DNA of 64,000 nt, from positions 2,903 through 66,902 of the forward strand of contig JBPCMN010000042.1 of the NCBI GenBank assembly GCA_051002235.1. The letters are read 5' to 3'. Origin of the DNA: Acidimicrobiia bacterium (GTDB lineage: Bacteria; Actinomycetota; Acidimicrobiia; IMCC26256; JACDBD01). Both the position numbers and the translations under genes were made by a program. Within the stretch, counting starts at the first letter, position 1; each line of letters opens with the position of its first letter. The notes beneath the pieces were generated by a model that made no database searches, was not told the origin of the DNA, and worked only from the letters and a program-made list of their open reading frames with translations. This document shows, piece by piece, positions 16,434 through 60,762 of the stretch.

Positions 16434-16485
16434 CTCTTCTGGTCGCGCTCGCTTCGCTCGCCGCTCCCGCACGCCTCTAGTCGCC

Positions 16486-16512
16486 GAGGGGGCCGGGGGA
16501 CCCGGCCCCCTC
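16486..16512. terminator. bidirectional stem-loop between convergent genes
   Basis: Perfect 12-bp stem GAGGGGGCCGGG / CCCGGCCCCCTC with a 3-nt loop, lying between the methyltransferase (+) and cca (-) stops. No U-tract. Confidence 0.5.
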
Positions 16513-16537
16513 GTGGGCCGATGGCAGCTCCTCGCTC

Positions 16538-25394: not shown

Positions 25395-25464
25395 GCGTCC
25401 CGCAGGGCGGCCGCCGGCCAGCCCGGTCGAGGATGGCCCGGCGGGCGAGGCGAGGCGCCCAGGA
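25393..25464 (+). repeat. 72-nt conserved intergenic element, copy A (upstream of degV)
   Basis: 69/72 identical to 55620-55691, with the first 52 nt perfect. Starts inside the murJ stop codon and ends 58 nt before the degV GTG. Confidence 0.75.
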
Positions 25465-25522
25465 AAGGTGTAACGATTCCGGTCTGGTCCCGGTCCGATC
25501 CGGAGCCAGAGAGGGGGGCTTC

Positions 25523-26359
25523 GTGGGTGTTCGAGTCGTCACCGACAGCGCATGTGACCTGCCCGAGGACCTCGTCGCCAAGCTCGACATCGAGATCGTC
25601 CCGCTGACGATCCGGTTCGGCAGCGACGAGCTCGTCGACCGGCGCGAGCTCTCGACCGACGACTTCTGGCGCCGCCTGGGCGAATCGCCGGTGCTGCCGG
25701 AGACGTCGGCCCCGTCGGCGGGCGCGTTCGAGGAGACCTTCCGGGCACTCGCCGACGGTGGCGCCGACGGGATCGTGTGCATCAACCTCTCGTCAAAGCT
25801 CTCCGCGACGATGCAGGCGGCCCAGGTCGCGGCCAAGGCGGTGCACGACGACTGCCCGGTCGAGGTGATCGACTCGCTCCACGTCTCGATGGGTCTCGGC
25901 AACCTCTGCATCACCGCCGCCAGGAGCGCGGCCGAGGGCGCCTCGCTCGAGTCGATCGTGGCGACGGTGCTCGACCAGCGCGAGCGCACCAAGCTCTACG
26001 GCACGCTCGATACGCTCGAGTTCCTCAAGAAGGGTGGCCGGATCGGCAACGCCCGCGCCCTGCTCGGGTCGATGCTCGCGATCAAGCCGGTCGTCGAGTT
26101 CAAGGACGGCGTCGTCGAGGAGGCGGGTAAGGTCCGCACCCGTTCCAAGGCGCTGCGCCTGCTCGTCGACAAGGTGAAGGAGGGCCCGGTCGAGAACCTG
26201 GCCGTCCTCCACGGCAACGCCCCCGACCTCGGCGAGCTCCTCGGCATGCTGAATCCGCTGGTCTCCCGGGACGAGATCGTCGTCGGCCAGATCGGTCCGG
26301 TCATCGGCACGCACGCCGGGCCCCGCGTCATCGGCGTGACCTTCCAAACCGGCACCTGA
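25523..26359 (+). CDS. DegV family fatty-acid-binding protein
   Basis: ORF 24071.. trimmed to GTG 25523 (SD GAGAGGGGGG). VRVVTDSACDLP...ETSAPSAGAF...GPVIGTHAGP are DegV hallmarks. Confidence 0.85.
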   Translation: MGVRVVTDSACDLPEDLVAKLDIEIVPLTIRFGSDELVDRRELSTDDFWRRLGESPVLPETSAPSAGAFEETFRALADGGADGIVCINLSSKLSATMQAAQVAAKAVHDDCPVEVIDSLHVSMGLGNLCITAARSAAEGASLESIVATVLDQRERTKLYGTLDTLEFLKKGGRIGNARALLGSMLAIKPVVEFKDGVVEEAGKVRTRSKALRLLVDKVKEGPVENLAVLHGNAPDLGELLGMLNPLVSRDEIVVGQIGPVIGTHAGPRVIGVTFQTGT

Positions 26360-26396: not shown

Positions 26397-27911
26397 GTGC
26401 CCGAGACCGTCGCCCCCGGCCGAGTCCTCGGCGGTCGCTACCGCCTGGACCACGAGCTTGCGCGCGGCGGCATGGCGGCCGTGTGGGTGGCCGAAGACCC
26501 GCTCCTCTCACGCCGCGTCGCGGTGAAGATCCTGCACCCCGAGCTCGGGGTCAACGAGGCGCTGCGGGCGCGCTTCCGCCACGAGGCGGTCGCGGCGGCG
26601 AAGCTCAGCCACCCCGCGATCGTCGCCACCTACGACACCGGCGACGACGACGGCACCGCCTACATCGTCATGCAACTCGTCGAGGGTCCGACGCTGCGTC
26701 GCATGCTCGACGCCCGCGGCGCGCTCCCGGTCGGCGAGGCCGCCGACATCGCCAGCCAGGTCGCCGAGGCGCTGGACCACGCCCACCGCAACGGCCTGGT
26801 GCACCGCGACATCAAGCCCGCGAACGTGCTCATCCCGCCCGACGGCCAGGTGAAGGTGACCGACTTCGGGATCGCCAAGGCCAGCGGGGGGGAGGACCTG
26901 ACCAGCACGGGCGCGGTCATCGGTACCGCCCGCTACCTCGCCCCCGAGCAGGTCAACGGGGACGCGGTCGACGGCCGCGCCGACGTGTACGCGCTCGGCC
27001 TCATCCTGTACGAGATGCTCACGGGAACGCTGCCCTTCCGCGGCGACAGCGAGATCGCGACCGCGATGGCCCGCCTCACGACGGTGCCCGACCCGGTACG
27101 CGACCTCCGGCCCGAGGTGCCGCCCATGCTCGACGCGGTGGTGAGCCGGAGCCTCGCCCGTGACCCGGAGCAGCGCTTCCCCTCGGCGCGGGCCCTGCAC
27201 GACGCCCTCGACCCGGCGCGCGACTCGACGCCGCCCCCGCGCTCGGCTCCGGCGCTCGCCGGGCCCGCCGACCACACCGTCGGGATCGACCGGACCGACG
27301 CGGAGGCGCTGGGCCCCCCGCCGACCGACGCCCGGGTCGTGACCCGACGCCGGAGACCGCGTGCCGCGCTCGCATTGCTCGTGGTCGCGGCGGTCGTGGT
27401 CGCCGGCTACGTCGGGGTGCGTGCCCTCTCCGGCGGCGACGACAACGGCTCGGGCGGCGGTACCACCACCGAGGATGCCGCGAAGCTCACGGTCGTCAAC
27501 GTCGCCGACTTCGATCCCGACGGTGACGAGCAGGAGAACGGGGACACCGCCGTCCAGGCGACGGACGGCAACCCGGGAACGGTCTGGTCGACCGAGCGCT
27601 ACAACAACCGCGACTTCGACGAGCCGAAGCAGGGCGTGGGGCTCATCCTCGAGCTCGACGGCGACCGCGCCGTCGGCAAGGTCGAGGTGGCGGCGGACGA
27701 CGAGGACTGGAACGGCGAGATCTACGTGGCCGCCGCCTCCGGGGCCGCGCTCGCCGACTGGGGTACACCGGTCGCCCAGGGAGCGAACCTCGGCCGGCTC
27801 GCCTCGTTCGACGTCAGCGAGGGAGCGCGGGGCCGGTTCGTGCTGGCGTGGATCACCCGGCTCCCCGCCGACGGCAAGCTCGGTATAGCCGAGGTGACGA
27901 TTGGCGGCTGA
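26397..27911 (+). CDS. Ser/Thr protein kinase with TM helix and extracellular beta-sandwich (discoidin/CBM-like) domain
   Basis: VAVKIL, HRDIKPANVL, DFGIAK and LAPEQ give an intact Hanks kinase. TM ALALLVVAAVVVAGYVGV. C-terminal domain includes NPGTVWSTERY... Confidence 0.85.
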   Translation: MPETVAPGRVLGGRYRLDHELARGGMAAVWVAEDPLLSRRVAVKILHPELGVNEALRARFRHEAVAAAKLSHPAIVATYDTGDDDGTAYIVMQLVEGPTLRRMLDARGALPVGEAADIASQVAEALDHAHRNGLVHRDIKPANVLIPPDGQVKVTDFGIAKASGGEDLTSTGAVIGTARYLAPEQVNGDAVDGRADVYALGLILYEMLTGTLPFRGDSEIATAMARLTTVPDPVRDLRPEVPPMLDAVVSRSLARDPEQRFPSARALHDALDPARDSTPPPRSAPALAGPADHTVGIDRTDAEALGPPPTDARVVTRRRRPRAALALLVVAAVVVAGYVGVRALSGGDDNGSGGGTTTEDAAKLTVVNVADFDPDGDEQENGDTAVQATDGNPGTVWSTERYNNRDFDEPKQGVGLILELDGDRAVGKVEVAADDEDWNGEIYVAAASGAALADWGTPVAQGANLGRLASFDVSEGARGRFVLAWITRLPADGKLGIAEVTIGG

Positions 27912-30517: not shown

Positions 30518-30543
30518 GGTCCAACCCGGGTCGGGGTTGGACC
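30518..30543 (+). other. stem-loop in trxB-trxA spacer
   Basis: Perfect 10-bp stem GGTCCAACCC / GGGTTGGACC with a 6-nt loop. Sits 24 nt after the trxB stop and 50 nt before the trxA GTG. Confidence 0.4.
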
Positions 30544-34003: not shown

Positions 34004-34034
34004 GGTGCTGCCGCCGGGCGGGGACCGGCGGCGA

Positions 34035-48213: not shown

Positions 48214-48849
48214 ATGGCGAGATCCCCCGGCGAGATGGACCCTCGCCCGACGCGACCGGTCGGGGCCGTGCCGCCCCCGGCCGAACGCGCCCCTGCGCCC
48301 GCGCCCGCACCCGAACCCGCGCCCGCGCCCGCGCCCGCACCCGAACCCGCGCCCGACCCGGACGGGGACTCGCGCCGCCCGCCGGCGCGCTCGCGCCAAC
48401 CGGTCAAGGCGGCGCCGCCGAAGCCGACCCGGGCGGACCGCAAGGCCGATCGCAACGCTCGTCGGGCGGCCAAGCCGGTCAAGCGCGAACGGCGGCTGCG
48501 TCACACGATCCAGAAGGTCGACCTCTGGTCGGTGATGAAGCTGTCGCTGTGCTTCTACCTCTGCGGGCTGGCGGTCACGCTCGTGGCGCTCGTCTCCCTC
48601 TGGCTCATCGCCGACGCCTTCGGCATCGTCTCCAACGTCGAGGAGTTCGTCGGTGACCTGCTGTCGTCGGAGGACTTCACCTTCCTATCGGGCGAGATGC
48701 TGCGAGGGGTGACGCTCGTCGGGCTGGTCGTCGTGATGCTCCAGGTCGTGGTCACGGTGATGTCGGCGGCGTTCTACAACCTGTTCGCGGAGCTGTTCGG
48801 CGGCATCGAGGTGACGGTCGTCGAGGAAGAGCCCGTCGCCCGTTCGTAG
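48214..48849 (+). CDS. DUF3566-like transmembrane protein (Rv0007 position)
   Basis: Pro/Ala-rich N-terminus, then IQKVDLWSVMKLSLCFYLCGLAVTLVALV...AAFYNLFAELFGGIEV. Directly after gyrA, as in mycobacteria. Confidence 0.75.
   Translation: MARSPGEMDPRPTRPVGAVPPPAERAPAPAPAPEPAPAPAPAPEPAPDPDGDSRRPPARSRQPVKAAPPKPTRADRKADRNARRAAKPVKRERRLRHTIQKVDLWSVMKLSLCFYLCGLAVTLVALVSLWLIADAFGIVSNVEEFVGDLLSSEDFTFLSGEMLRGVTLVGLVVVMLQVVVTVMSAAFYNLFAELFGGIEVTVVEEEPVARS
48295..48348 (+). repeat. in-frame tandem low-complexity repeat (PAPAPEP units)
   Basis: GCGCCCGCGCCCGCACCCGAACCC followed by GCGCCCGCGCCCGCGCCCGCACCCGAACCC. Coding, not CRISPR-like. Confidence 0.6.
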
Positions 48850-48900
48850 GTTGCGAGTACGCTCGCTCGCCGTGCCCGGCGCAGACCACAAACGTGGCGC

Positions 48901-48974
48901 GGGGCTATAGCTCAGTCGGTTAGAGCGCATCCCTGATAAGGATGAGGTCGGTGGTTCGATTCCACCTAGCCCCA
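48901..48974 (+). tRNA. tRNA-Ile (anticodon GAT), no encoded CCA
   Basis: Acceptor GGGGCTA/TAGCCCC, anticodon stem CATCC/GGATG with loop CTGATAA, T arm GGTGG-TTCGATT-CCACC. Confidence 0.9.
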
Positions 48975-48976
48975 CT

Positions 48977-49114
48977 GTGAAGACCTTCCGCCGTGGGTTG
49001 CTCGTCGCGCTAGTCGCGGTGCTGGTCGGCGGGTTCGTTCGTCTGCGAGGCAAGGGCGGGGTCCCGCCCACGAGCGGCGGCTGGCGGGAGCTCGAGGGTC
49101 CCGAGTTCCGTTGA
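48977..49114 (+). CDS. small membrane protein (45 aa), tentative
   Basis: Not in ORF track. GTG lies 2 nt after the tRNA-Ile end. VKTFRRGLLVALVAVLVGGFVRLRGKGG... GC3-rich. Stop overlaps the TTG start of the next gene (TTGA). Confidence 0.35.
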   Translation: MKTFRRGLLVALVAVLVGGFVRLRGKGGVPPTSGGWRELEGPEFR

Positions 49115-50118
49115 CGGCCGTCCTGCTGGTCGGCACGGGCGCCGTCGGTGTCTGCGCCGCTCGTCAGCTCGTCGACACGCCCGGGCTCGAACGGCTCCTG
49201 ATCGCCGGCCGCGACCACGCCCGGGTCCAGACCATCACGAACGCGCTGGGTGAGCGGGCCGAGCCGGCCCCGTTCGCGCCCGGCGACGCGCTTCCCGCCG
49301 GGGTCACCGCCGTCGCCACCGCCCTGCCGCCCGCGCTCGACGCCGCGGTCGCGGGCAGTGCGGTGGCCGCGGGTGTACCGGTCGCGTCGGTCGGCGACGA
49401 CGAGCACGCGGTGACCGCCCTGCTCGGCCTGGACGCCGGCGCCCGGGATGCGGGTATCGCGGTGGCGATCGGATGCGGGCTCGCACCTGGTCTCGCCGAC
49501 GTCCTCGCCCGCCATGCCGCCGGCGTGCTCGACCGGATCGACGAGGTGCACGTCGCCCGCTCGGGAGTAGCGGGGCCCACGTCGCGGGCCTCGCTTCGGA
49601 GGGCGCGGCGGGGCCGGCCGGCCGAGTGGCAGGACGGCGTCTGGCACCGGGAGCGGCGGGGTGCCGCTGAGCTCGTCTGGTTCCCCGACCCGGTGGGAGC
49701 GCGTGAGTGCGAGCCGGTCGCGGCGGGCACGGCGCTGCTGGTGGCTGAGTTCTCCGGTCTCCGCCGAGCGACGATGCGCTTCGACGAGCTCCCGCCGGCG
49801 AGCATCGCCGAGACTCTGACCCGGCGGCGCGCCGACGACAGCTGGGGCGCGGTGCGCGTCGAGGTCTGGGGGTGGCAGGGTCAGGTGCGCGCGCCGGTGG
49901 TATACGGCGTGATCGAGCGGACCGCGGTGGCAGCGGGAACGGTGCTGGCGGTGACCGCGGCGCGCCTCGCCGGCGCGCTCCCGACCCTCCCGCTGCGCGC
50001 CAGCCACGAGCACGGCGCGCAGGGTCTCGGCGCGCTGCTCGAGCCGCCACCGTTCCTGGCCGAGCTCGCCCGCCGGGGGGTCAAGGCCGCCGTGTTCGAG
50101 GGCGTGGCGGTTGCCTGA
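49111..50118 (+). CDS. saccharopine dehydrogenase-like NAD(P)-binding protein
   Basis: Rossmann start VLLVGTGAVGVCAARQL. 335 aa. Family assignment is by overall resemblance. Confidence 0.65.
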   Translation: MTAVLLVGTGAVGVCAARQLVDTPGLERLLIAGRDHARVQTITNALGERAEPAPFAPGDALPAGVTAVATALPPALDAAVAGSAVAAGVPVASVGDDEHAVTALLGLDAGARDAGIAVAIGCGLAPGLADVLARHAAGVLDRIDEVHVARSGVAGPTSRASLRRARRGRPAEWQDGVWHRERRGAAELVWFPDPVGARECEPVAAGTALLVAEFSGLRRATMRFDELPPASIAETLTRRRADDSWGAVRVEVWGWQGQVRAPVVYGVIERTAVAAGTVLAVTAARLAGALPTLPLRASHEHGAQGLGALLEPPPFLAELARRGVKAAVFEGVAVA

Positions 50119-50764
50119 GCTCCGTCTCGAGCGAGCCGTGCGGACCCTGCCGGTCGACGGCGACATCGAAGTGACGGTCGCATCGCTGCGAGCCCGAGTC
50201 CAGTGGGACAACGCGCGCTCGGGTGGCAGCCTCGGCCTCGGCCTCGCCACGCCACTGGCGGTACGGCCCCGGAGCGGGCCGGCATTGTCGGTGCGTTTGA
50301 CCGGACGAAGCGCCGCCGGGCTGGCGGCGGCAATGATCTGCCGAGGCGCCGCCGCGCCACCGAGAGGGGAGAACGACATGGACCAGCCCGAGCGGATCAG
50401 CTCGGTCGTGCCCAAGGTGGCCCAGTCCGACGAGATGGTGCGGACCTTCACCGCCGCCGCCACGGGGCAGGGAGTGGTCGGCGCCGCCACGACCGCCGGC
50501 GATCGAACGGCGGTGCCCCTGATCGAGACGATGTTCGCCGGCGGCTACGGCGGCGGGGGCGGCAGCGAGGGCGAGAAAGGGGACATCGGAGCGGGCGGCG
50601 GCGGCGGAGGATTCGCCCGCAGCCGGACCGTTGCGATTCTCGAGGTCGCGCCTGACGGCGTGCGGGTCAGGCCGGTCATCGACCAGACCGCGGTGATCCT
50701 CGCCGGGCTCGGTGCCGCGGTCGGCGTGCTCGGGGTGCTCCGGCGGGGTCGCCGCCGGCATTGA
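50111..50764 (+). CDS. GerW/YtfJ-like protein with C-terminal TM (possible internal start at 50378)
   Basis: C-terminal half TAVPLIETMFAGGYGGGGGSEG...GGGGGGFARSRTVAILEV resembles the YtfJ/GerW family. TTG 50111 overlaps the upstream stop. ATG 50378 has its own SD GAGAGGGGA. Confidence 0.5.
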   Translation: MPELRLERAVRTLPVDGDIEVTVASLRARVQWDNARSGGSLGLGLATPLAVRPRSGPALSVRLTGRSAAGLAAAMICRGAAAPPRGENDMDQPERISSVVPKVAQSDEMVRTFTAAATGQGVVGAATTAGDRTAVPLIETMFAGGYGGGGGSEGEKGDIGAGGGGGGFARSRTVAILEVAPDGVRVRPVIDQTAVILAGLGAAVGVLGVLRRGRRRH

Positions 50765-50807
50765 GTCGAAGGGGCGCGCCGCGCGTTCCCGTACCATCGC
50801 GAGTCAC

Positions 50808-50881
50808 GGGGACGTAGCTCAGTTGGCTAGAGCACCTGCTTTGCAAGCAGGGGGTCGTGGGTTCGAGTCCCATCGTCTCCA
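50808..50881 (+). tRNA. tRNA-Ala (anticodon TGC), no encoded CCA
   Basis: Acceptor GGGGACG/CGTCTCC, anticodon stem CCTGC/GCAGG with loop TTTGCAA, T arm GTGGG-TTCGAGT-CCCAT. Confidence 0.9.
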
Positions 50882-50980
50882 CCGACCGACGCCAGGCCGC
50901 GCCTACGGGAGGCGGATCTCGTGATCCCGTCGTCAGGCTCGGAGCTAGTGAACCGTGCTTGGAGCGGGCAGAGTCGTCGA

Positions 50981-51196
50981 CTACTGGGAGAGAGCCTCGG
51001 AGCCCTGGCTGTGGCGGCTGTCCTGGCGTCGAAGTGCCTGGTGGCGCTGGAGTCGGAGGTAGGCGGCGAGGACGACCGCCCGGTCGGCGGTCGGGGTCGA
51101 GCCTTCGTGCTCGATGAGTTGTTCGAGCGCGAGCGCGACCAGCGCCACATCCGGAGGTTCGAGATCGAGCCGGACCATCGGCCGGTTGGCGGTCAT
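50981..51196 (-). CDS. hypothetical small protein (71 aa)
   Basis: ORF 50981..51505 trimmed to ATG 51196, with a G-rich SD upstream. MTANRPMVRLDLEPPDVALVALALEQLIEHEG... GC3-rich. Confidence 0.4.
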   Translation of the reverse strand: MTANRPMVRLDLEPPDVALVALALEQLIEHEGSTPTADRAVVLAAYLRLQRHQALRRQDSRHSQGSEALSQ

Positions 51197-51264
51197 CGGG
51201 CCCCCCCCAAATCCGACAGATCGCCGCGAAGGGGGAGATTCTATACCTGGCCGCGGCCCGACCA

Positions 51265-52053
51265 TCAAGAGCGATCGGCCACTGAAAGCGGTCGGCCACG
51301 CGCGGCACGTCGGAGGCGTCGCCAAACGCGGCGCGCCGAGGCCAGGGCATAGGCGAGGCCCAGCACCACCCAGCCGCCGACCGCGTCGAGGAAGAAGTGG
51401 TTGCCGGTGACGACGGTGCAGAACAACTGGGCCGCCGGGTAAGCGACGAGCAGTGCCTTCGCCCACGGCCGGCGGACGAGCGGCCACAGCGCCAGCGCGA
51501 TCCAAGTCGACCAGCCGATGTGGAGGCTGGGCATGGCCGCGTAGAGGTTGTCGGCGCTGGGATCACGGCTCGCCTCGCCCAGCCCGAAGTACTCGACGCG
51601 GGTGTCGACGAAGCCGTAGCTCGCCGGCAGCAGGCGGGGTGGCATCAGGGGGTAGAGCCAGAACCCGGCCAGGGCCAGCCCCAGCATCACGATCAGGGTG
51701 TTGCGCCAGCGCACGTACCGTGCCGGCGCCTTGATGTAGAGCCACACCAGCGCGACCACCGGCATCACGAAGTGCACGCTGGCGTAGAAGATGTTCCAGA
51801 ACGAGATGAAGGCGCGATAGGGGAGGAACCACTCCTGGATGGTCTCCTCGTGATAGATGCCGAGGAGCCGCTCACCCCGGATCACCTGCCGGGCGTGGCG
51901 AAAGGCGTCGGCCTCGGAGCCGATGAGCTGGTCGCGGGCCCAGTCGTAGACAGTGGTGACGGCGCGGACCCCGATGATCTCGAGGACCCAGCCGAAGCGG
52001 ATCCGCCGGCTGCGCGGGGTGGGTGCGTCCGCCTCGAGCCGCCCGGGAGTCAC
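51265..52053 (-). CDS. PAP2-superfamily membrane protein (phosphatase / phosphoinositol-transferase-like)
   Basis: Multi-TM. C-terminal AAMPSLHIGWSTWIAL...VVTGNHFFLDAVGG resembles the PAP2_C motif. Start placed at GTG 52053 to avoid the divergent kinase gene. Confidence 0.65.
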   Translation of the reverse strand: MTPGRLEADAPTPRSRRIRFGWVLEIIGVRAVTTVYDWARDQLIGSEADAFRHARQVIRGERLLGIYHEETIQEWFLPYRAFISFWNIFYASVHFVMPVVALVWLYIKAPARYVRWRNTLIVMLGLALAGFWLYPLMPPRLLPASYGFVDTRVEYFGLGEASRDPSADNLYAAMPSLHIGWSTWIALALWPLVRRPWAKALLVAYPAAQLFCTVVTGNHFFLDAVGGWVVLGLAYALASARRVWRRLRRAARGRPLSVADRS

Positions 52054-52087
52054 CGCGGGCGAAAGTAGCCCCACGCAAGGTGGGAGA

Positions 52088-53797
52088 ATGGCTGGTCGGA
52101 AGGGTCCACGCCCGACATCTGGGGGAGCGATGGGGAGGGCAGCCCGGCGCGTCAGGTTGATGCTGGCGGTGGCGGTGGCGGTCGCGATCCCGTTCGCCCC
52201 CGGCCTCACCCGCGCCGAGCGGTTCGCGCTCGCCGGGCTCGTTCTCGGCTACGCGGCCCTGGCGGCGGTGTTCGACGAGATCGGGGCCCGCCGCACCCGC
52301 TTCCCGGCCACGCCCTTGAGTGCGCCGGCCGGCGTGGCCACGATCTTCGGGGCGACCCTCGTGCTCCCCGAGCTCCAGCCGGTGGCGCTCGTCTTCTACG
52401 TCGTCGCGGTGGCGTTCTACACCGCGATCGGCGGGATCCGGCTCGGGCTCGGTCTCGCCGCGGTCGCGGTGGGCGGTGCGGTCACCGCCCACCTCCTCGC
52501 CCCGAGCGACGAGCAGCTCGAGCCCCTCGCACTGGCGGCGTTCGCGGTGCTCCTGCCCGCGGTCGCGGCGGCCGCCGAGTTCCTGGCCCGGAGCCGGCGC
52601 CGCACCGCCGAGCGGCTGGCGCGGCTGCACGACGCGCTCCGAGCCGTGAGCGTCACCCCCGACCTTCAGGCCACCCTCGACTCGATCGCGGAGTCGAGCG
52701 CGGCAGCGGTGGGCGCGGCCGCCGCCGGCATCCTCCTGCGCGAGGAGGACCGGCTGGTTCCGGCCGCGTCCAGTTCCGGACGGCCCGAATGGATGAGCGA
52801 CGGCGCTCGCGACACCGGTCCGTTCGCGCGGGCGATGAAGCGCCGAGAGACCGTCGTCGCACCCGACGGACGTCGGTCTCTCGTGGCGGTGCCGCTGCGG
52901 GTGAGCGGTGAACCCATCGGCGTCCTGGCCGCCGCCTTCTCCGGGACGGGCGGCCCGGCCCGTGACGATCTCACGTTGCTCGAGACCTACGCGGAGCAGG
53001 CGGCACTGGTCATCGTGCAGGCCCAGGCGTTCGAGCGTGAGCGGCAGGCGGCCGAGCAGCTCGCCGAAGCGGACCGGCTCAAAGGCGAGTTCCTGGGCAT
53101 GGTGTCGCACGAGCTGCGCACGCCGCTTACCGTGGTGAAGGGTGTCGTCGACACCGTGCTCCTCCACTGGGAGCGCCTGCCCGACGAGCGTCGGCGCGAG
53201 CTGCTGGTCCGGGCATCCGGCAACGCCGACGAGCTGAACCGTCTGGTCGGCCAGCTGCTCGACTTCGCCCGCATTGAAGCCGAGCGGGTCCGTCTCGAAC
53301 CCGAGGTGCTGACGGTGCGGGTGTTGGTGGAGACGGCGCTGGAGCAGCTGGGGGCGGTGCTCGAGCGGCACCGAATCGAGGTCGACGTACCCGAATCGCT
53401 GGCGGTCATGGCCGATGCCGATGCCCTGGCCCACGTGCTGACCAACCTGCTCGTCAACGCGGCCAGGTTCGCGCCCCCCGGAAGTCTGATCATGGTGTCG
53501 GCCCGCGATGCCGATGACGAGGTGGTGATCTCGGTCGTCGACGAGGGGCCCGGCGTCGCGCCCGACGACCGTGAGCGCATCTTCGAGCGCTTCTACCAGG
53601 CGCCGGTTCACGCGTCGGCGCGCAAGGGGACCGGGATCGGGCTGGGCATCGCCCGGACCCTGGTCGAGCTGCACGGCGGCCGCATCTGGGTGGAGGGTCT
53701 GCCTGCCCCCGGCTCCACGTTCTCGTTCACGATGCCCGACGCCTCCGCATCCGACCGCGCTCCCGGCGCGACGCCAGCCGCGGCGGCCGGGGCATGA
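52088..53797 (+). CDS. sensor histidine kinase (multi-TM, GAF, HisKA, HATPase_c)
   Basis: ATG 52088 (SD GGGAGA). About 5 TM helices and a GAF-like middle. H-box MVSHELRTPL, N-box LTNLLVNAARF, G-boxes DEGPGV and GTGIGLGIA. Confidence 0.85.
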   Translation: MAGRKGPRPTSGGAMGRAARRVRLMLAVAVAVAIPFAPGLTRAERFALAGLVLGYAALAAVFDEIGARRTRFPATPLSAPAGVATIFGATLVLPELQPVALVFYVVAVAFYTAIGGIRLGLGLAAVAVGGAVTAHLLAPSDEQLEPLALAAFAVLLPAVAAAAEFLARSRRRTAERLARLHDALRAVSVTPDLQATLDSIAESSAAAVGAAAAGILLREEDRLVPAASSSGRPEWMSDGARDTGPFARAMKRRETVVAPDGRRSLVAVPLRVSGEPIGVLAAAFSGTGGPARDDLTLLETYAEQAALVIVQAQAFERERQAAEQLAEADRLKGEFLGMVSHELRTPLTVVKGVVDTVLLHWERLPDERRRELLVRASGNADELNRLVGQLLDFARIEAERVRLEPEVLTVRVLVETALEQLGAVLERHRIEVDVPESLAVMADADALAHVLTNLLVNAARFAPPGSLIMVSARDADDEVVISVVDEGPGVAPDDRERIFERFYQAPVHASARKGTGIGLGIARTLVELHGGRIWVEGLPAPGSTFSFTMPDASASDRAPGATPAAAAGA

Positions 53798-55143
53798 CGG
53801 CGATCATGCGACGCCTGGTGCCGGCGGCCGCGTTCACGCTCGTGGGCTTCGCCGCGCTGGCGAGCCCGGCCGCGACCGCGGCGCCGGCGGGCCCGCTGCC
53901 GCCGATCACGACCCCGCCACTCCCCATCCCCCTCCCGGTCAACCCCAACGAGCTGCTGGGCTCGGTCGGCGATGCCGTCGAGCAGCTCGTCGGCGGGATC
54001 CCCCTCCCCGGCGCCGCGCCCGCACCCGCCCCGGCTCCGGCACCCGCTCCGGGTCCGGCACCCGCTCCGGGTCCGGCCCCGGCCACCATTCCGCCGGCCG
54101 CGCCGCCGCCGGTACCGGCGGACACCGAGGCGGTCCCCGCGGACGGGCCAGCCGGACCCGACGCCGGACCGGCGGCGGGCGACGACGACTCCGGAGCCGA
54201 CGGCGGCCCCAGCTCGCTGCCGGCGCGGCTCGGTGCCGCCGCCGGGACGGGCGCCAACCTGCTGTTGCTGGCGCTGGGCCTCGGCCTCGCCTTGGTCGCC
54301 GCCAGCCCCCGCGGCCCGACCTACCGCCGGGCGCGACGCGAGGTGCTCGACCGGCTGGCGGACGCGTACGATCAACAGCACCGGGCGGCCGAGGAGCTCG
54401 CCGAGGCCAACCGGCTCAAAGGCGAGTTCCTGAGCATGGTCTCGCACGAGCTGCGCACGCCGCTGACCTCGGTCAAGGGTTTCGTCGACACCGTGCTCCT
54501 CCACTGGGACCGGTTCCCCGAGGAGCAGCGGCGCGAGCTCCTCGACCGGGCATCCGGGCGCGCCGACGAGCTGACCCGACTCATTTCCCAGCTGCTCGAC
54601 TTCGCCTCGATCGAAGCCGACCGGGTCGACGTCGACCTGCGGGTGCTGGACGTGCGCGAGCTCGTCGACGTGGTCATCGGTGACGTCGCCCCGGTTGTGG
54701 CCGACCACCGCATCGAGGTCGAGGTGACCGAGGAGCTCGTCATGACCGCCGATGCCGACGCGTTCTCACACGTCCTCGTCAACCTGTTGACCAACGCGGT
54801 GAAGTTCTCACCCGACGACAGCACCATCCGCGTCCAGGCCCGGGCCGAGCGCCACGAGGTCGTGGTGTCGGTCGCCGACCAGGGCACCGGCATCTCCGTC
54901 GAGGATCAGCGCCGAATCTTCGACCGCTTCTACCAGTCGGACGCATCCGAAGGCGACGGGAACGGGTCGCGACGCGGCACCGGCATCGGTCTCGCCATTG
55001 CCCAGCGCTTCACCGAGGTGCAGGGGGGGCGGATCTGGGTCGAGAGCGCGCCCGGGCAGGGCTCGACCTTCTTCTTCACTCTGCCGGTCGGTCGCGTCGC
55101 CGCCACTCGAGTGGTCGCGACCGCCACGCCGGCACCGGACTAG
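53794..55143 (+). CDS. sensor histidine kinase paralog (signal peptide, Pro/Ala-rich ectodomain, 1 TM, HisKA, HATPase_c)
   Basis: ATGA overlap with the upstream kinase. H-box MVSHELRTPL, N-box LVNLLTNAVKF, DQGTGI, GTGIGLAIA. The catalytic core is clearly paralogous to 52088..53797. Confidence 0.85.
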   Translation: MTAIMRRLVPAAAFTLVGFAALASPAATAAPAGPLPPITTPPLPIPLPVNPNELLGSVGDAVEQLVGGIPLPGAAPAPAPAPAPAPGPAPAPGPAPATIPPAAPPPVPADTEAVPADGPAGPDAGPAAGDDDSGADGGPSSLPARLGAAAGTGANLLLLALGLGLALVAASPRGPTYRRARREVLDRLADAYDQQHRAAEELAEANRLKGEFLSMVSHELRTPLTSVKGFVDTVLLHWDRFPEEQRRELLDRASGRADELTRLISQLLDFASIEADRVDVDLRVLDVRELVDVVIGDVAPVVADHRIEVEVTEELVMTADADAFSHVLVNLLTNAVKFSPDDSTIRVQARAERHEVVVSVADQGTGISVEDQRRIFDRFYQSDASEGDGNGSRRGTGIGLAIAQRFTEVQGGRIWVESAPGQGSTFFFTLPVGRVAATRVVATATPAPD

Positions 55144-55559
55144 TCGGCCCGCTCCTTGCGACGCACGAAAAACGTTCCCGTTCCCCGCGACACCAGCTCT
55201 CCCGCGGGGTCCCGTACCCACGACTCGAGGTAGGCGATCTGACGGGCGAGGCGGACGACCTCGCCCCGTACGGACAGCTCTGCACCGGCCTCGGCCGCCC
55301 GCATGGTCTCGTACTTGATGTCGAGCGTTGCCGCCCGATCCCCCGATTCGAGCGCGGCGTTGGTGGCGAAGTTCATCGCCGCGTCGTGGATCACGCCGTA
55401 CACCCCACCATGGACCGCGCCCAACGGGTTGCACGCGAGCTCGGTGGGCGTCCAGGTGGCGGTCGCCCACCCTTCGCCGTAGCCGTCGAAGGAGATCCCG
55501 AGCTGGGCCAGGAGGGGCATACCGCCGTCGCCGAGGGCGTTGTCCAGGTTGCGGGGCAC
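55140..55559 (-). CDS. PaaI-family hotdog thioesterase
   Basis: NPLGAVHGGVYGVIHDAAM... is a PaaI/4HBT-type motif. 139 aa. Confidence 0.8.
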   Translation of the reverse strand: MPRNLDNALGDGGMPLLAQLGISFDGYGEGWATATWTPTELACNPLGAVHGGVYGVIHDAAMNFATNAALESGDRAATLDIKYETMRAAEAGAELSVRGEVVRLARQIAYLESWVRDPAGELVSRGTGTFFVRRKERAD

Positions 55560-55619
55560 CGCTGGAGGCTAGTCAGAGGTGCCATCCACAGACGTGAGTC
55601 GTGCATTGCGCGGAGCGGC

Positions 55620-55691
55620 GAGCGTCCCGCAGGGCGGCCGCCGGCCAGCCCGGTCGAGGATGGCCCGGCGGACGAGGCGAGGCGACCATGA
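55620..55691 (+). repeat. 72-nt conserved intergenic element, copy B (upstream of thiolase)
   Basis: 69/72 identical to 25393-25464. Lies in the divergent paaI/thiolase spacer and ends 52 nt before the thiolase ATG. Confidence 0.75.
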
Positions 55692-55743
55692 GGACGGCAG
55701 GTATCCTGCCGCCGAGAGTGCGGCGAAAGAAGAGGAGCCCTCC

Positions 55744-56907
55744 ATGGCCACCGCGGTCATCGTTGATGCCGTCCGTACCCCCCTCGGGCGCCGCAACGGC
55801 AAGCTCAAGGACACCCATCCGGTCGACCTCGCCGCCCAGACGCTGCAGGCGATCGTCGAGCGCAACGGCGTCGACCCCGCGCTCGTCGACGACGTGATCA
55901 TGGGCTGCGTCATGCAGGTCGGCGACCAGGCCATCAACGTGGGCCGAAACGCCGCGCTGGCCGCCGGGTTCCCCGAGTCGGTGGTCGGCACCACCGTCGA
56001 CCGGCAGTGCGGGTCGTCGCAGCAGGCCGCCCACTTCGCCGCCCAGGGCGTCATCGCGGGCGCGTACGACGTGGTGATCGCGGCCGGTGTCGAGAACATG
56101 ACCCGCGTGCCGATGGGCGCGTCGGTGATCCCCGGGAGCCTCCCCTTCGGGCCCAAGATGATGTCCCGCTACCAGGACCCCGGCCTCGTTCCCCAGGGCA
56201 TCTCGGCCGAGCTGATCTCCGAGAAGTGGAACATCTCCCGGGAGGACAACGACCGGTTCTCGGTGGAGTCCCACCTGCGGGCGGCGCGCGCCACCGACGA
56301 GGGCCGCTTCGAGCACGAGATCGTCCCGGTCGGGGTGACGACCGAGGAGGGCAAGGAGGAGTTCAGCCGCGACGAGGGATTCCGGCCCGACACCTCGATG
56401 GAGAAGCTGGCGACCCTCAAGCCCGCGTTCAAGCCCGACGGCGTCATCACCGCGGCCAACTCGTCGCAGATCAGCGACGGCGCCGCCGCGGTGCTCGTCA
56501 TGAGCGAGGAGAAGGCCAGCGAGCTCGGCCTCACACCCAAGGCGCGCTTCCACGCGTTCGCCCTCGCCGGTGTCGACCCCGTCATGATGCTGACCGGCCC
56601 GATCCCGGCGACGACGAAGGTGCTCGAGCGGGCCAAGATGACCCTCGACCAGATGGATCTGGTCGAGATCAACGAGGCGTTCGCGCCGGTGGTGCTCGCG
56701 TGGGAGAAGGAGCACCACCCCGACATGAGCAAGGTCAACGTCAACGGCGGCGCGATCGCCATCGGCCACCCGCTGGGGTGCTCGGGCGCGCGCCTCATGG
56801 CGACGCTGGTGCACGAGCTCGACCGCACCGGCGGGCGCTGGGGCCTCCAGACCATGTGCGAGGGCGGCGGCATGGCCAACGCCACCGTCATCGAGCGCCT
56901 GGGGTAG
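55744..56907 (+). CDS. acetyl-CoA C-acetyltransferase (thiolase)
   Basis: ORF 55579.. trimmed to ATG 55744 (SD GAAGAGGAG). Active-site VDRQCGSSQQA and C-terminal NVNGGAIAIGHPLGCSGAR. Confidence 0.9.
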   Translation: MATAVIVDAVRTPLGRRNGKLKDTHPVDLAAQTLQAIVERNGVDPALVDDVIMGCVMQVGDQAINVGRNAALAAGFPESVVGTTVDRQCGSSQQAAHFAAQGVIAGAYDVVIAAGVENMTRVPMGASVIPGSLPFGPKMMSRYQDPGLVPQGISAELISEKWNISREDNDRFSVESHLRAARATDEGRFEHEIVPVGVTTEEGKEEFSRDEGFRPDTSMEKLATLKPAFKPDGVITAANSSQISDGAAAVLVMSEEKASELGLTPKARFHAFALAGVDPVMMLTGPIPATTKVLERAKMTLDQMDLVEINEAFAPVVLAWEKEHHPDMSKVNVNGGAIAIGHPLGCSGARLMATLVHELDRTGGRWGLQTMCEGGGMANATVIERLG

Positions 56908-56954
56908 CCCTGCTCTCGGACGCGCTTCGGATCGCCCTCGCGGTCTTCGCCGCG

Positions 56955-57158
56955 GTGACGATCTACGTGATCGGCGCCGGGATCCTGAAGAAGTTCAAGA
57001 TCGCGCCGCCCGAGGAGCCCGATCCGGCCGACCTACGGCCGGTCGACGCCCGGTTCCGGTGCGCAGTGTGCGGGGCCGAGGTGACGATGACCGTGTCGGC
57101 CACCGACGAGCCCGAAGCCCCCCGGCACTGCCGCGAGGACATGGTCCGCCTGCCTTGA
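56955..57158 (+). CDS. small TM plus zinc-ribbon-like protein, start uncertain
   Basis: Frame is open from the thiolase stop. The predicted TM (ALRIALAVFAAVTIYVIGAGIL) begins upstream of the first canonical start, GTG 56955. C-terminus has CAVCG...HC. Confidence 0.35.
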   Translation: MTIYVIGAGILKKFKIAPPEEPDPADLRPVDARFRCAVCGAEVTMTVSATDEPEAPRHCREDMVRLP

Positions 57159-57185
57159 TTTATTGGCTCTGACCTGCGCAAACGC

Positions 57186-57212
57186 GGGTTTTCCCCAGAT
57201 GGGGGATAACCC
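57186..57212. terminator. bidirectional terminator-like hairpin between convergent genes
   Basis: GGGTT-T-TCCCC-AGAT-GGGGA-T-AACCC: 10-bp stem with one T:T mismatch, in the low-GC 88-nt spacer before the crgA stop. Confidence 0.45.
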
Positions 57213-57246
57213 TGTGGGAAGTTACAGCAGTGGCATTTGCTGGCCT

Positions 57247-57477
57247 TTAGCGGAGGCGGGTCGAGAGGACGAAGCCGCCGGTGATGAGGCCGAGGCCGAC
57301 GAAGAGGAAGCTGTTGCTGGCCTCCCCGAAGAGCAGCTCGAGGTAGTTGAGGATCACCACCACGACGCCCGCCAGCATCATCGTGAACATCGTGGCCGGC
57401 ACCCACAGCTTGCTGGGCGGCGCCTTCTGCGGCGCCGGCGGCGTGTAGCGCGATCGCTTGCTCTTCGACGGGGGCAT
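57247..57477 (-). CDS. crgA: cell division protein CrgA
   Basis: ORF trimmed to ATG 57477. MPPSKSKRSRYTPPAP...WVPATMFTMMLAGVVVVILNY...FLFVGLGLITGGF is the two-TM CrgA pattern. Confidence 0.85.
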   Translation of the reverse strand: MPPSKSKRSRYTPPAPQKAPPSKLWVPATMFTMMLAGVVVVILNYLELLFGEASNSFLFVGLGLITGGFVLSTRLR

Positions 57478-57510
57478 CGGCGCGGAGGATAACCGTCGAG
57501 CGGATCGCCG

Positions 57511-58131
57511 ATGGCGCGTTACCGTGCGCTCGTGTCTGCGCGAGTGGTCGTGATCGACAACTACGACTCGTTCGTCTACAACCTTGTCCAGTACCTCGGC
57601 GAGCTCGGTGCCGAGCCGGTCGTGCACCGACACGACCAGGTGACGCTGGCCGAGCTGCGCGACCTCGCCCCCGACGCGGTGCTGGTGTCACCCGGCCCCG
57701 GCCGACCCGAGGATGCCGGCATCTCCAACGACGCCATCTGCGAGTTCGGTGAGCGGGGCGTGCCCGTGCTGGGGGTGTGCCTGGGCCATCAATGCATCGG
57801 CGCGCTCTACGGCGGCGACGTCGTGCGGGCGCCGCAGGTGATGCACGGCAAGACCTCGGAGATCAATCACGACGGGGCCGGCGTGTTCGCGGGTCTCCCC
57901 GACCCGATCACGGCCACCCGCTACCACTCGCTCGTCGTGGCCCGCGACACGGTCCCGCCCGACCTGGTGGTTAGCGCCGAGAGCGAGGATGGGTTGGTCA
58001 TGGGGCTGCGCCACCGCGACCTACCGGTCGAGGGCGTGCAGTTCCATCCCGAATCCATCCTCACCGAGTCGGGCCACGCGCTGTTGAAGAACTTCCTGAA
58101 CCAGGCCGGGGCTACGGCAGCGAAGCCATAG
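57511..58131 (+). CDS. trpG: glutamine amidotransferase, anthranilate/aminodeoxychorismate synthase component II
   Basis: VVVIDNYDSFVYNLVQYLGELG, catalytic GVCLGHQ, HPES. Start may be GTG 57532 or 57544 instead of ATG 57511. Confidence 0.9.
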   Translation: MARYRALVSARVVVIDNYDSFVYNLVQYLGELGAEPVVHRHDQVTLAELRDLAPDAVLVSPGPGRPEDAGISNDAICEFGERGVPVLGVCLGHQCIGALYGGDVVRAPQVMHGKTSEINHDGAGVFAGLPDPITATRYHSLVVARDTVPPDLVVSAESEDGLVMGLRHRDLPVEGVQFHPESILTESGHALLKNFLNQAGATAAKP

Positions 58132-58881: not shown

Positions 58882-60762
58882 CTACGGTGACTGCCCCACG
58901 ACGATCATCACCGTCGAGCCCTTCGGGGCCTGGCCACCCGACGGTGACTGCGCCGTGACCAGGCCGTTCTGCGCCGGCGCCGACGGGGCGAAGCTCGTGA
59001 TCACGTTGAACCCCGCGAAGATCAGCATGTCCTGGGCCGCCGCCTGGGTCTGGCCCACGGTATTGGGCACGTTGACCATCGACGGGCCGTTCGACACGTA
59101 GAGGATGAGCGCGGTGCCCTTGCGCTGCCGGGTGCCCTCGGCAGGATCGGTGCGGGTGGCGCGCCCGGCCGGGATCGTGTCGTGAGGCTCGGGCCGGACC
59201 GTCACCTCGAAGCCGGCGAAACGGAGGTTCGCCTCAGCCTGCGCCTGGGGCAGATTGGCCACGCCCGGGATGTCGACCGCCGGCTCCTTGGCCACGAACA
59301 GCGTCACCGGCGGCTGGCCGCTCTTGAGGACCTCGCCACCGGCGGGCGGGTCGGTCCGCAACACCTGGCCGGGAGGCTGCTCGCTCTCCTCCTCGGTGAC
59401 CACGATGCTCGCGGGCCCGGGCGCCAATCCCTTACTCCTGAGCTCGTTCTCGGCGTCGCCGCGCTGCTTTCCGACCAGGTTCGGCATCAGGAACTTCGAG
59501 GCGCTCACGGTCAGCTCGACCGTTCCGCCCTTCTTGAGCTTCTCGCCCGAGGCCGGATCCTGCCCCAGCACCTGGTTCTCGGCCTGGTTGCTCTCCTCGT
59601 CGTTGCGCTTGACCTCGAATCCCTTCGCTTCGAGGGCGAGCTTCGCCTCGTCGAAGGTCTGGCCGACGACGTCGGGAACGGCCACAGTCGGGGCGCTGCT
59701 GCCCCGTTCGGGTGTGAACACCCCCGTGATCAGGCCGATCATCGCCGCGATCAACAGGACCCCGAGGATGGAGGCCACGACCGCGCCGACCACCTTGCGG
59801 GAACTGCGGCGCGGGGCGTAGTCGCCGGGCGGATAGTCGCCCGTCGGCGGTACGGCCTGGGTCTGGGCCACCGCCTCACCCGTGGGGAGGGCGGTGACGA
59901 CGGCCGTGACCGGGGCGGCGCTCGGCGCCTTCCCCCGCCCGAACCGCACCAGGTCGTCGCGCAGGTCGTCGGCCGACTGGTAGCGGCTGTCGAGGTCCTT
60001 CGACATCGCCGACAGCACGATGCGCTCGAGGTCGTGCGGCACCGACGGCACCTGCTCGCTGAGCATCGGAGGCTCCTCGCGCACGTGCTTGTACGCGACC
60101 GCCACCGGGGTATCGCCGCTGAACGGCGGCTCCCCGCTCAACATCTCGTAGAGCACGACGCCGAGTGAGTAGACGTCGGATCGCCCGTCGACGGGCAGGC
60201 CCTGGGCCTGCTCGGGAGAGAAGTAGGTAGCGGTGCCCATGACCGCGCCGGTCTGGGTGAGGGCCTCCTTGGTGTCGGCCTGGGTGGCTCGGGCGATCCC
60301 GAAGTCGGTGACCTTGACCCGCCCGGTTTCGGTGAGCAGCACGTTGCCGGGCTTGATGTCGCGGTGGACGACGCCGCTGCGGTGGGCGAACGCCAACGCC
60401 TCCGCGATCTCGGCGCCGATCTCGGCGGACTGGGCGGGAGCAAGCGGCCCGTCGGCGTGGATGAGGTCGCGCAAGCTGCGGCCCTCGATGTACTCCATCA
60501 CGATGAAATAGGTGCCGCGCTCCTGGCCCCAGTCGTAGATGGCGACGATGTTGGGGTGGCTCAGGTTGGCGGCGGCCTGGGCCTCGCGCCGGAACCGCTC
60601 CACGAAGCTCGGGTCGCGGGCGAACTCGGGGAAGAGCACCTTGACCGCCACCAGCCGGTCGAGCAGCTGGTCGCGGGCGAGGTACACCTGCGCCATGCCG
60701 CCCCGGGCGATGCCGCGTTCGATCTCGTAACGGTCCGAGAAGCTGTTCGCGACCTCCGTCAT
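58882..60762 (-). CDS. pknB: Ser/Thr protein kinase PknB with four PASTA repeats
   Basis: VAVKVL, HRDIKPGNVL, DFGIAR, TM VVGAVVASILGVLLIAAMIGLI, then four PASTA-like repeats (VPDVVGQ..., MPNLVGK..., IPGVANL..., VPNTVGQ...). Confidence 0.9.
   Translation of the reverse strand: MTEVANSFSDRYEIERGIARGGMAQVYLARDQLLDRLVAVKVLFPEFARDPSFVERFRREAQAAANLSHPNIVAIYDWGQERGTYFIVMEYIEGRSLRDLIHADGPLAPAQSAEIGAEIAEALAFAHRSGVVHRDIKPGNVLLTETGRVKVTDFGIARATQADTKEALTQTGAVMGTATYFSPEQAQGLPVDGRSDVYSLGVVLYEMLSGEPPFSGDTPVAVAYKHVREEPPMLSEQVPSVPHDLERIVLSAMSKDLDSRYQSADDLRDDLVRFGRGKAPSAAPVTAVVTALPTGEAVAQTQAVPPTGDYPPGDYAPRRSSRKVVGAVVASILGVLLIAAMIGLITGVFTPERGSSAPTVAVPDVVGQTFDEAKLALEAKGFEVKRNDEESNQAENQVLGQDPASGEKLKKGGTVELTVSASKFLMPNLVGKQRGDAENELRSKGLAPGPASIVVTEEESEQPPGQVLRTDPPAGGEVLKSGQPPVTLFVAKEPAVDIPGVANLPQAQAEANLRFAGFEVTVRPEPHDTIPAGRATRTDPAEGTRQRKGTALILYVSNGPSMVNVPNTVGQTQAAAQDMLIFAGFNVITSFAPSAPAQNGLVTAQSPSGGQAPKGSTVMIVVGQSP

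Follow-up and report, generated by a model that had tools for sequence, protein, structure and literature searches.

A structured, probably mobile intergenic repeat in a narrow lineage of uncultured Acidimicrobiia

The DNA considered here is a 64,000-nt stretch from an Acidimicrobiia bacterium (contig JBPCMN010000042.1 of assembly GCA_051002235.1; hereafter the window), in which a 72-nt sequence occupies the spacer between a thioesterase gene and a thiolase gene transcribed in opposite directions. This 72-mer is the best-conserved core of a longer non-coding element of about 124 nt. The element is probably a low-copy, mobile and structured interspersed repeat that resembles repetitive extragenic palindromic (REP) sequences, miniature inverted-repeat transposable elements (MITEs) and enterobacterial repetitive intergenic consensus (ERIC) sequences, and it appears specific to a narrow lineage of Acidimicrobiia, where it was inserted independently at no fewer than three sites of one genome. 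Close relatives are without it at each of these sites, which means that the acyl-CoA genes did not inherit it as a control site. The first-pass annotation of the sequence had read the 72-mer as an operator or 5'-untranslated-region (5'-UTR) element that could control both genes, and had argued against a simple terminator. That interpretation is partly supported: the element is not a simple terminator, but neither is it a conserved operator or a 5'-UTR element controlling these genes.

Copies and anatomy of the repeat

The 72-mer (55620-55691) recurs once in the window: the sequence at 25393-25464, also on the + strand, differs from it by 3 mismatches. The chance expectation for such a match is 0 (none in 100 dinucleotide-preserving shuffles), and the presence of two copies in the window, as first annotated, is thereby confirmed. 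In a repeat search the matching pair grew to 80 nt (25385-25464 and 55612-55691; 94% identity), including an identical run of 52 nt. These two copies are called A and B; a third, C, lies on another contig. The layout of the element was derived by aligning the three copies with the sequences present at the orthologous site B in two related contigs, L023 and L034 (contigs other than the window are cited by L numbers).

From 5' to 3', the element consists of a 5' part that is little conserved, about 38 nt long and begins with GGAAGG; a hairpin P1 (GGGAGC-GGCGA-GCGTCCC, 7 pairs) whose stem is identical in all copies; a linker of 3-4 nt, G(C)(T)A; a GC-rich hairpin P2 with a conserved base, GGCGGC...GCCGCC, and a variable apex; and a purine-rich tail, GAG(G)CGAG...CGACCRRGAAAG, ending in GGAAG. 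The long form of P2, present in A, B and C, measures 40 nt; the forms with a 3-nt loop read GGCCGCCGGG-TAT-CCCGGCGGCC in L034 and GGCGGCAGG-TAT-CCTGCCGCC in L023. The invariant motif of the element is GGGAGCGGCGAGCGTCCCG. Length varies from 104 to 160 nt among copies, with no conserved open reading frame (ORF). An element-encoded small protein was ruled out, as no ORF is common to the copies and their indels are not multiples of three.

25344-25467, + strand: copy A, full-length element of 124 nt, its 5' boundary set by analogy with copy C
25383-25402, + strand: hairpin P1 of copy A, CGGGAGC-AGTGA-GC-G-TCCCG, the sole differences in copy A being in the loop
25408-25447, + strand: long P2 of copy A, CGGCCGCCGGCCAGCC-CGGTCGA-GGATGGCCCGGCGGGCG, from the alignment pairing
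55575-55732, + strand: copy B, composite, from the alignment
55575-55610, + strand: variable 5' part of copy B, AGAGGTGCCATCC...TTGCGC, by homology to the 5' parts of A, C, L023 and L034
55611-55629, + strand: hairpin P1 of copy B, from the alignment
55635-55674, + strand: long P2 of copy B, the centre of the 72-mer, from the alignment
55674-55694, + strand: tail 1 of copy B, GAGGCGAGGCGACCATGAGGA, common to L034 and copy A
55695-55711, + strand: short hairpin of copy B, CGGCAGG-TAT-CCTGCCG, second hairpin module of the element, homologous to GGCGGCAGG-TAT-CCTGCCGCC of L023 and to the third module of L034
55712-55732, + strand: tail 2 of copy B, CCGAGAGTGCGGCGAAAGAAG, last part of the element, aligned with the L023 and L034 tails
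L018 7529-7653, - strand: copy C, 125 nt, third copy, on another contig assigned to the same genome

Copy B is composite: its 5' part, P1, long P2 and tail are followed by the short hairpin and a second tail, directly 3' of which come the Shine-Dalgarno sequence and ATG of the thiolase gene (55733-55746). The short hairpin had been annotated as a second perfect hairpin, GGCAGG-TAT-CCTGCC. It exists, and its position is corrected by 2 nt rightward to 55696-55710; the stem extends to 7 bp, CGGCAGG/CCTGCCG, at 55695-55711. Taken alone it is only mildly unusual: per 184 nt of window, 0.13 perfect hairpins are expected with a stem of 6 bp or more and a 3-nt loop, and 0.70 if any loop of 3-8 nt is allowed. 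It is counted as part of the element because it is conserved in the orthologous loci of L023, where it is the sole P2 hairpin, and L034.

Across A, B, C, L023 and L034, the core is 82-94% identical and the 5' part 65-79%; among A, B and C alone, the figures are 91-94% and 71-76%. The 5' part of copy B is 77-79% identical to those of L023 and L034, which match each other at 97%, and this comparison suggests that the window copy has been partly overwritten by another family member. In L034, the element contains a 24-nt tandem duplication (1593-1640, GAGCGTCCCGAAGGGCGCGTCGCC followed by GAGTGTCCCGCAGGGCGGCCGCC), indicating that resident copies grow by slippage.

Filled and empty sites

The strongest evidence for insertion comes from orthologous loci of relatives. 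Across the three sites, orthologous spacers are empty in 10 contigs representing 8 lineages. Copy B lies in a divergent spacer of 184 nt between the following genes.

55140-55559, - strand: 4HBT/PaaI-type thioesterase gene, transcribed away from copy B (Pfam PF03061; record MBA2326829.1, named PaaI family thioesterase)
55744-56907, + strand: thiolase gene, 3' of copy B (Pfam Thiolase_N and Thiolase_C; the equivalent ATG is the start in all orthologues)

The Pfam identities bear out the annotated position of copy B between divergent thioesterase and thiolase genes, with no co-oriented gene on its 5' side. Locus B was recovered in three independent assemblies (ENA, NCBI GCA_013695115.1 and a JGI metagenome) and is therefore not an assembly artefact. 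The orthologous spacers compare as follows, with amino-acid identities for thiolase.

Window: spacer 184 nt, filled
L023: identity 95%, spacer 157 nt, filled, short form
L034: identity 95%, spacer 196 nt, filled, short-hairpin variant
L031: identity 95%, spacer 66 nt, empty
L035/L036/L037: identity 92%, spacer 81-82 nt, empty
L024/L025: identity 91%, spacers 66 and 78 nt, empty
L026/L027: identity 89%, spacer 160 nt, unrelated sequence

The proposal that the element serves both acyl-CoA genes as an operator or 5'-UTR element is not supported by these spacers, which are 66-82 nt long and lack it in L031, L035/L036/L037 and L024/L025. It is countered as well by recent insertions of the same element at two unrelated places, murJ-degV and site C. 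What the relatives keep in the divergent spacer, where the repeat is not retained, is a palindrome-containing motif, TTGACYGCYCGGTC. Its fuller form is TACAGTTGACYGCYCGGTC(T)AGT, with the inverted repeat GACCG-NN-CGGTC, and it is shared by the spacers at L031 593-658, L024 9177-9242, L035 4186-4267 and L023 about 9960-10000. L023 retains most of the motif 3' of the element, and it is missing from the spacers of the window and L034. Elsewhere in the window it is not enriched (6 matches with up to 2 mismatches vs 3.8 expected). This motif is likely the ancestral operator or promoter element of the divergent pair, and a better candidate than the repeat.

With the insertion at B, the distance between the divergent start codons grew from about 70 to 184 nt, a tripling of the spacer, and the expression of thiolase and paaI was probably rewired. 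Any present effect on these two genes may be a side effect or recent co-option of the insertion, and not a conserved regulatory design. A consensus promoter and terminator scan found nothing at copy B. The loop of the short hairpin includes TATCCT (55702-55707), which fits the -10 hexamer pattern TANNNT and lies 36 nt upstream of the ATG; it is a lead only. A DnaA box in the 5' part of copy B (CCATCCACA) is not conserved in the other copies and was rejected. An in-frame GTG at 55579, preceded by the Shine-Dalgarno sequence GGAGG, was also ruled out as the thiolase start, since every orthologue begins at the codon matching ATG 55744 and conservation is lacking upstream of it. The ORF from this GTG runs through copy B into thiolase (442 aa vs 387 aa), an annotation trap made by the insertion.

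Copy A lies between two co-oriented genes.

23703-25394, + strand: murJ gene (Pfam)
25523-26359, + strand: degV gene, 3' of copy A (Pfam DegV; orthologues found in relatives)

This spacer is empty, at 48-49 nt, in L045 (96% DegV identity), L028 (93%), L029 (91%) and L030 (85%). The murJ genes of relatives end in ...TCC GTG TAA, and copy A lies just 5' of this ancestral stop, ...TCC/GTGTAA (a slash marks the junction here and below). A block of 133 nt in the window (25335-25467) stands against 12 nt in L045, directly 5' of the retained GTGTAACG. The new TGA stop of MurJ (25392-25394) falls inside the element; the tail of the protein is longer and unrelated, its last 16 or so residues (EGLPSEVRSQGFAREQ) being element-encoded, and MurJ has 563 aa in the window vs 546 aa in L028 and 536 aa in L030. 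The insertion lengthened the murJ-degV spacer from 48 to 128 nt. The ancestral spacer itself (window 25468-25522, GTGTAACGATTCCGGTCTGGTCCCGGTCCGATCCGGAGCCAGAGAGGGGGG) is near-identical in L029 and L045 and more diverged in L028 and L030. It has its own hairpin (CTGG..CCGG / CCGG..CCAG) and may be a conserved leader or terminator in its own right.

A scan of JGI metagenomes with a 24-mer from the variable P2 apex, a probe that would miss short-form copies, recovered locus B again (L019) and copy C (L017/L018). The latter has a different gene context, an FABP/THAP4-like gene beside a truncated MMPL gene and a TetR gene. The protein named FABP belongs to the THAP4/nitrobindin type of haem-binding barrels (PF08768) and is no lipid enzyme. 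The proteins of L018 are recorded as MBA2326781.1 and MBA2326783.1 and those of the window as MBA2326828.1 (thiolase) and MBA2326829.1 (thioesterase), and a second assembly repeats the pattern (MGI8795173/75 and MGI8796426/27). These patterns place copy C in the same metagenome-assembled genome (MAG) as the window, which therefore holds at least three copies. In the sister MAG, which also contains L023, site C is empty in L046, a 74-nt spacer reading GAGTCTCGTTC/GTGACCAACG; the filled site in L018 reads GAGTCTTTCC (GGAAGG...GGAAG) GTGACCGACG. Beside copy C, at L018 7303-7443 (-), the MMPL-type transporter gene is a 46-aa N-terminal remnant overlapping the start of the TetR gene. In L046 (1-446, -) the MMPL reading frame runs on to the contig end, indicating that a deletion or rearrangement occurred beside copy C.

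No further copies were found in 222-429 kb of window and related DNA with nhmmer profiles and a covariance model, R1, which set true copies (54 bits or more) apart from noise (21.5 bits or less). A scan of a genome collection with a 22-mer, again from the apical, variable part of P2, returned 14 matches of 22-24 nt, all due to chance: they fall in coding sequence of unrelated taxa, antisense to a codon run of the R-A-I-L-D-R-A type. Scans of viral contigs with three patterns gave chance matches only, and plasmid and phage BLAST gave no match.

Support for the hairpin structure

Comparative data, from five aligned sequences representing three independent loci, lend suggestive support to the pairing of P2. 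Its 15 pairs are formed in 97% of alignment cells, and pairing falls to 25-48% when the partner is slid by 1-3 columns. Two pairs are compensated: columns 34-65 are C-G in A, B and L034 and G-C in C and L023, and columns 37-62 are C-G vs A-U in L023. The predicted structure would be compatible with RNA or with single-stranded or cruciform DNA. The 7 pairs of P1 are invariant and thus uninformative on structure either way. Folded singly, the sequences have energies no better than shuffles (z = -0.1 to -1.5, against a background of 70% GC or more).

Junctions, relative age and possible mechanism of insertion

The element starts with GGAAGG and finishes with GGAAG. Terminal inverted repeats are absent: the 3' end, reverse-complemented as CTTCCTCGGTCGGG, does not resemble the 5' end, GGAAGGCCCGCCATCC. 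Nor is there a target duplication at the filled/empty junctions of A (against L045) and C (against L046). The empty targets at A and C are alike, CGTCC/GTGTAA and CGTTC/GTGACC; at B the left junction is ...ACA/ or uncertain, and three sites make too small a sample to fix a target sequence. By comparison of filled and empty loci, A and C are judged to postdate divergence from the closest relatives sampled, and B is the oldest, shared in short-hairpin forms with two relatives at 95% identity. Although A and C are both recent, the 5' parts are only 71-76% identical, and A and C were therefore copied neither from each other nor from the present B. Other source copies must consequently exist or have existed. 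Once in place, the element changes as its hairpins expand or are deleted and as short stretches are duplicated in tandem; examples are the duplication in L034 and the two hairpin-plus-tail modules in B.

The element would be copied in trans by an enzyme that recognises its hairpins as single-stranded or cruciform DNA. The best guess for such an enzyme is a transposase of the HUH/Y1 type, as for REP sequences with their REP-associated tyrosine transposases (RAYTs) or for elements derived from IS200/IS605, since the repeat combines hairpins and an apparently sequence-specific junction with the lack of terminal inverted repeats and target-site duplication. P1 and the base of P2 might act as recognition or structural determinants, and effects on neighbouring genes would be side effects of insertion.

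Several observations weigh against a mobile repeat. The apparent copy number is low, only loci B and C being recovered from the metagenome with a probe from the variable apex, unlike classical REP sequences or MITEs. No transposase, integrase or RAYT was detected by Pfam among 30 ORFs scanned (346-26359 and 48685-58131); these are housekeeping or unassigned ORFs with no mobilising gene, and the rest of the window, judged by synteny, holds ordinary origin-region genes. The insertions at A and B are unclean, 12-14 nt of target having been replaced at each, and may have originated by illegitimate recombination or gene conversion. All three independent copies point to a downstream start codon, a number too small to be significant (n = 3). 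Lastly, the core of copy B is 87-91% identical between orthologues vs 77-84% at third codon positions of thiolase, which hints at a host-level function or concerted evolution acting on the core, and the core may have a functional, co-opted role.

Alternative explanations

It is unlikely that the repeat is a cis-regulatory element, that is, an operator or structured 5'-UTR RNA that co-regulates lipid or acyl-CoA genes (degV, thiolase/paaI and the FABP-like gene) on a common signal. All three copies do lie 14-85 nt 5' of a start codon and in the same orientation, and the neighbouring annotations have a lipid flavour (DegV, thiolase, PaaI thioesterase, "FABP family protein", a truncated MMPL gene with a TetR gene), yet the FABP-named protein is the haem-binding barrel PF08768. 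The compensatory changes in P2, an apex whose length varies like that of a non-essential RNA stem, the invariant stem sequence of P1 and a core slightly above third-codon-position identity would also suit a regulatory RNA. Against this, fold energies are not distinguished from shuffles (z = -0.1 to -1.5), and an identity of 85-94% over about 85 nt, with the 52-nt identical run, is more readily explained by recent copying than by a degenerate binding site or an aptamer. The phylogenetic distribution is more telling: the same divergent spacer lacks the element in every relative with thiolase identity of 92% or less and in one of the three at 95%, as does murJ-degV even at 96% DegV identity, and site C of the sister MAG. 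The different, conserved palindrome of the empty sites is more likely the operator. In the window, Rfam 15 yielded three tRNAs and nothing else at gathering thresholds, and between 55500 and 55800 all matches were at chance level (E >= 0.57); a known RNA family or riboswitch was ruled out, as there is no Rfam match and the element is not conserved 5' of orthologous genes.

Also unlikely is that the conserved core, made up of the invariant P1, the compensated base of P2 and the tail, is functional, either as a portable cis-regulatory RNA or DNA cassette co-opted 5' of three lipid-associated transcription units (degV, thiolase/paaI and the FABP-like/TetR locus), or as the structure recognised by a mobilisation system of Acidimicrobiia that would be undescribed, depend on hairpins (HUH type) and target CGTYC/GTG.

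An RNA 3'-end or stability element, such as a factor-independent terminator or an exonuclease-blocking hairpin resembling REP sequences and bacterial interspersed mosaic elements (BIMEs), spread because it insulates transcription units, seems improbable. Copy A immediately follows murJ, with the stop codon within the element, and P2 is long and GC-rich (13-15 pairs); hairpins of the REP type are known to stabilise upstream mRNA. However, no T-run follows P2 or the short hairpin, the stems being followed by GAGGCGAGG and GCCGAGAG, the terminator scan is blank at the element, and copies B and C have no co-oriented gene on the 5' side. In relatives, moreover, a murJ-degV spacer of 48 nt suffices, and it contains a conserved hairpin of its own. 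On this point the first-pass annotation, which had doubted a simple terminator, was right.

Very unlikely is a non-mobile host sequence that ectopic gene conversion or illegitimate recombination carried to a few palindromic, GC-rich sites between genes, with no dedicated enzyme: the sharp, high-identity core (82-94%) inside divergent flanks (5' part 65-79%), the apparent overwriting of the 5' part of B in the window lineage (77-79% to L023 and L034, 97% between these), the replacement rather than duplication of target nucleotides at A and B and the lack of a transposase among the Pfam-scanned window ORFs would be expected from it, but it needs pre-existing homology at the recipient, of which the empty A and C sites have none, and the same ends (GGAAGG...GGAAG) in three insertions with similar targets (CGTYC/GTG at A and C) fit a defined element better.

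Genomic setting

The thiolase and its neighbours have their matches in MAGs labelled Actinomycetota or Acidimicrobiia. The window covers the chromosomal origin region, with DnaB, SSB and S6 on one side and crgA, pknB, pbpA and rodA on the other; in the middle, parAB and gidB-jag-yidC were placed by synteny with L030 and gyrBA by synteny with L023. By ORF positions and synteny, copies A and B form direct repeats about 30 kb apart that bracket parAB, gidB, jag, yidC, dnaA, dnaN, recF and gyrBA. Recombination between them would excise the origin region and should therefore be strongly counter-selected. The possibility that A and B are attL and attR of an island was ruled out, the intervening 30 kb being the conserved origin region and syntenic in relatives without copy A.

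Other repeats of the window are of different kinds. Tandem histidine-kinase paralogues at 51953-53797 and 53794-55143, the first with a GAF domain, share stretches of 300 and 86 nt at 74-80% identity (repeat families D1 and D10), and the pair is kept in relatives. An inverted repeat of 317 nt (26567-26883 and 60285-60601, 70% complementarity) falls by position in opposed Ser/Thr protein kinase paralogues (26397-27911, +, and 58882-60762, -) and is not a mobile element. Further perfect, GC-rich intergenic hairpins of 8-13 bp, at 16485-16513, 30518-30543, 34010-34032 and 51073-51093, have no sequence kinship with the element and resemble ordinary terminator-like hairpins.

Comparison with known repeat families and implications

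The closest parallels are found among small palindromic repeats. REP sequences and their composite forms, BIMEs and REPINs, which are linked to RAYTs with Y1 HUH activity and occur mostly in Proteobacteria, are likewise short, GC-rich, imperfect intergenic palindromes without terminal inverted repeats or target duplication. Their hairpins are kept by compensated changes, their modules stand singly or in tandem, and they can affect the stability or expression of neighbouring mRNA. Unlike them, the present element is known from three copies in the sequence sampled, whereas they number tens to hundreds per genome, and the GTAG (GT[A/G]G) of REP sequences at the 5' foot of the palindrome is not conserved, the tetranucleotide being GTAG in L023, CTAG in C, GCAG in A, B and module 2 of L034, and GAAG in module 1 of L034. 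It also carries the additional invariant P1 and the variable 5' part of about 38 nt, and the Pfam-scanned ORFs of the window include no RAYT. A literature search on REP and RAYT in Actinobacteria found no paper.

ERIC sequences, also called intergenic repeat units (IRUs; about 127 nt, enterobacterial), are imperfect palindromes of similar size, about 125 nt, that are exclusively intergenic and often lie inside transcription units; internal indels among copies and presence or absence at orthologous sites of close relatives are common to both. In contrast, there is no sequence kinship, the phylum is another, the copy number here appears far lower, and the ERIC target is TA rather than CGTYC/GTG as at A and C. 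Classical MITEs are small, non-coding and non-autonomous as well, with filled and empty orthologous sites as at A, B and C, but have terminal inverted repeats and target duplications, neither of which occurs here. Palindrome-associated transposable elements (PATEs), derived from IS200/IS605, share hairpins in place of inverted repeats, the lack of target duplication and, possibly, insertion adjoining a short specific sequence; their left and right subterminal hairpins are similar, however, whereas P1 (GGGAGC...GCGTCCC) and P2 (GGCGGC...GCCGCC) are unrelated, and no parent insertion sequence or TnpA is present among the Pfam-scanned window ORFs.

Mycobacterial interspersed repetitive units (MIRUs) offer an actinobacterial case of intergenic repeats, 50-100 nt long, inside operons. 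Their length varies by tandem duplication, and copy A similarly overlaps the stop codon of the upstream gene. MIRUs, however, form tandem arrays with short ORFs overlapping both flanking genes, whereas this repeat has no conserved ORF and is defined by its hairpins. Intrinsic terminators differ in the U-run, which is absent after the hairpins here, and only copy A follows a co-oriented gene. The repeat is thus best filed as an undescribed family within a known kind, the small, structured, interspersed intergenic repeats.

If this assignment is true, the repeat marks an otherwise undescribed family of small repeats in a lineage of uncultured Acidimicrobiia that comes from polar desert soil, and gives a cautionary case in which a promoter-region repeat resembling a shared operator proves, by comparative data, to be a young insertion. 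Its local consequences would be that the ancestral control sequence of thiolase was replaced and that the C-terminal tail and stop codon of MurJ were rewritten. Such elements open no long-standing question; they are useful as strain markers and are a source of regulatory change.

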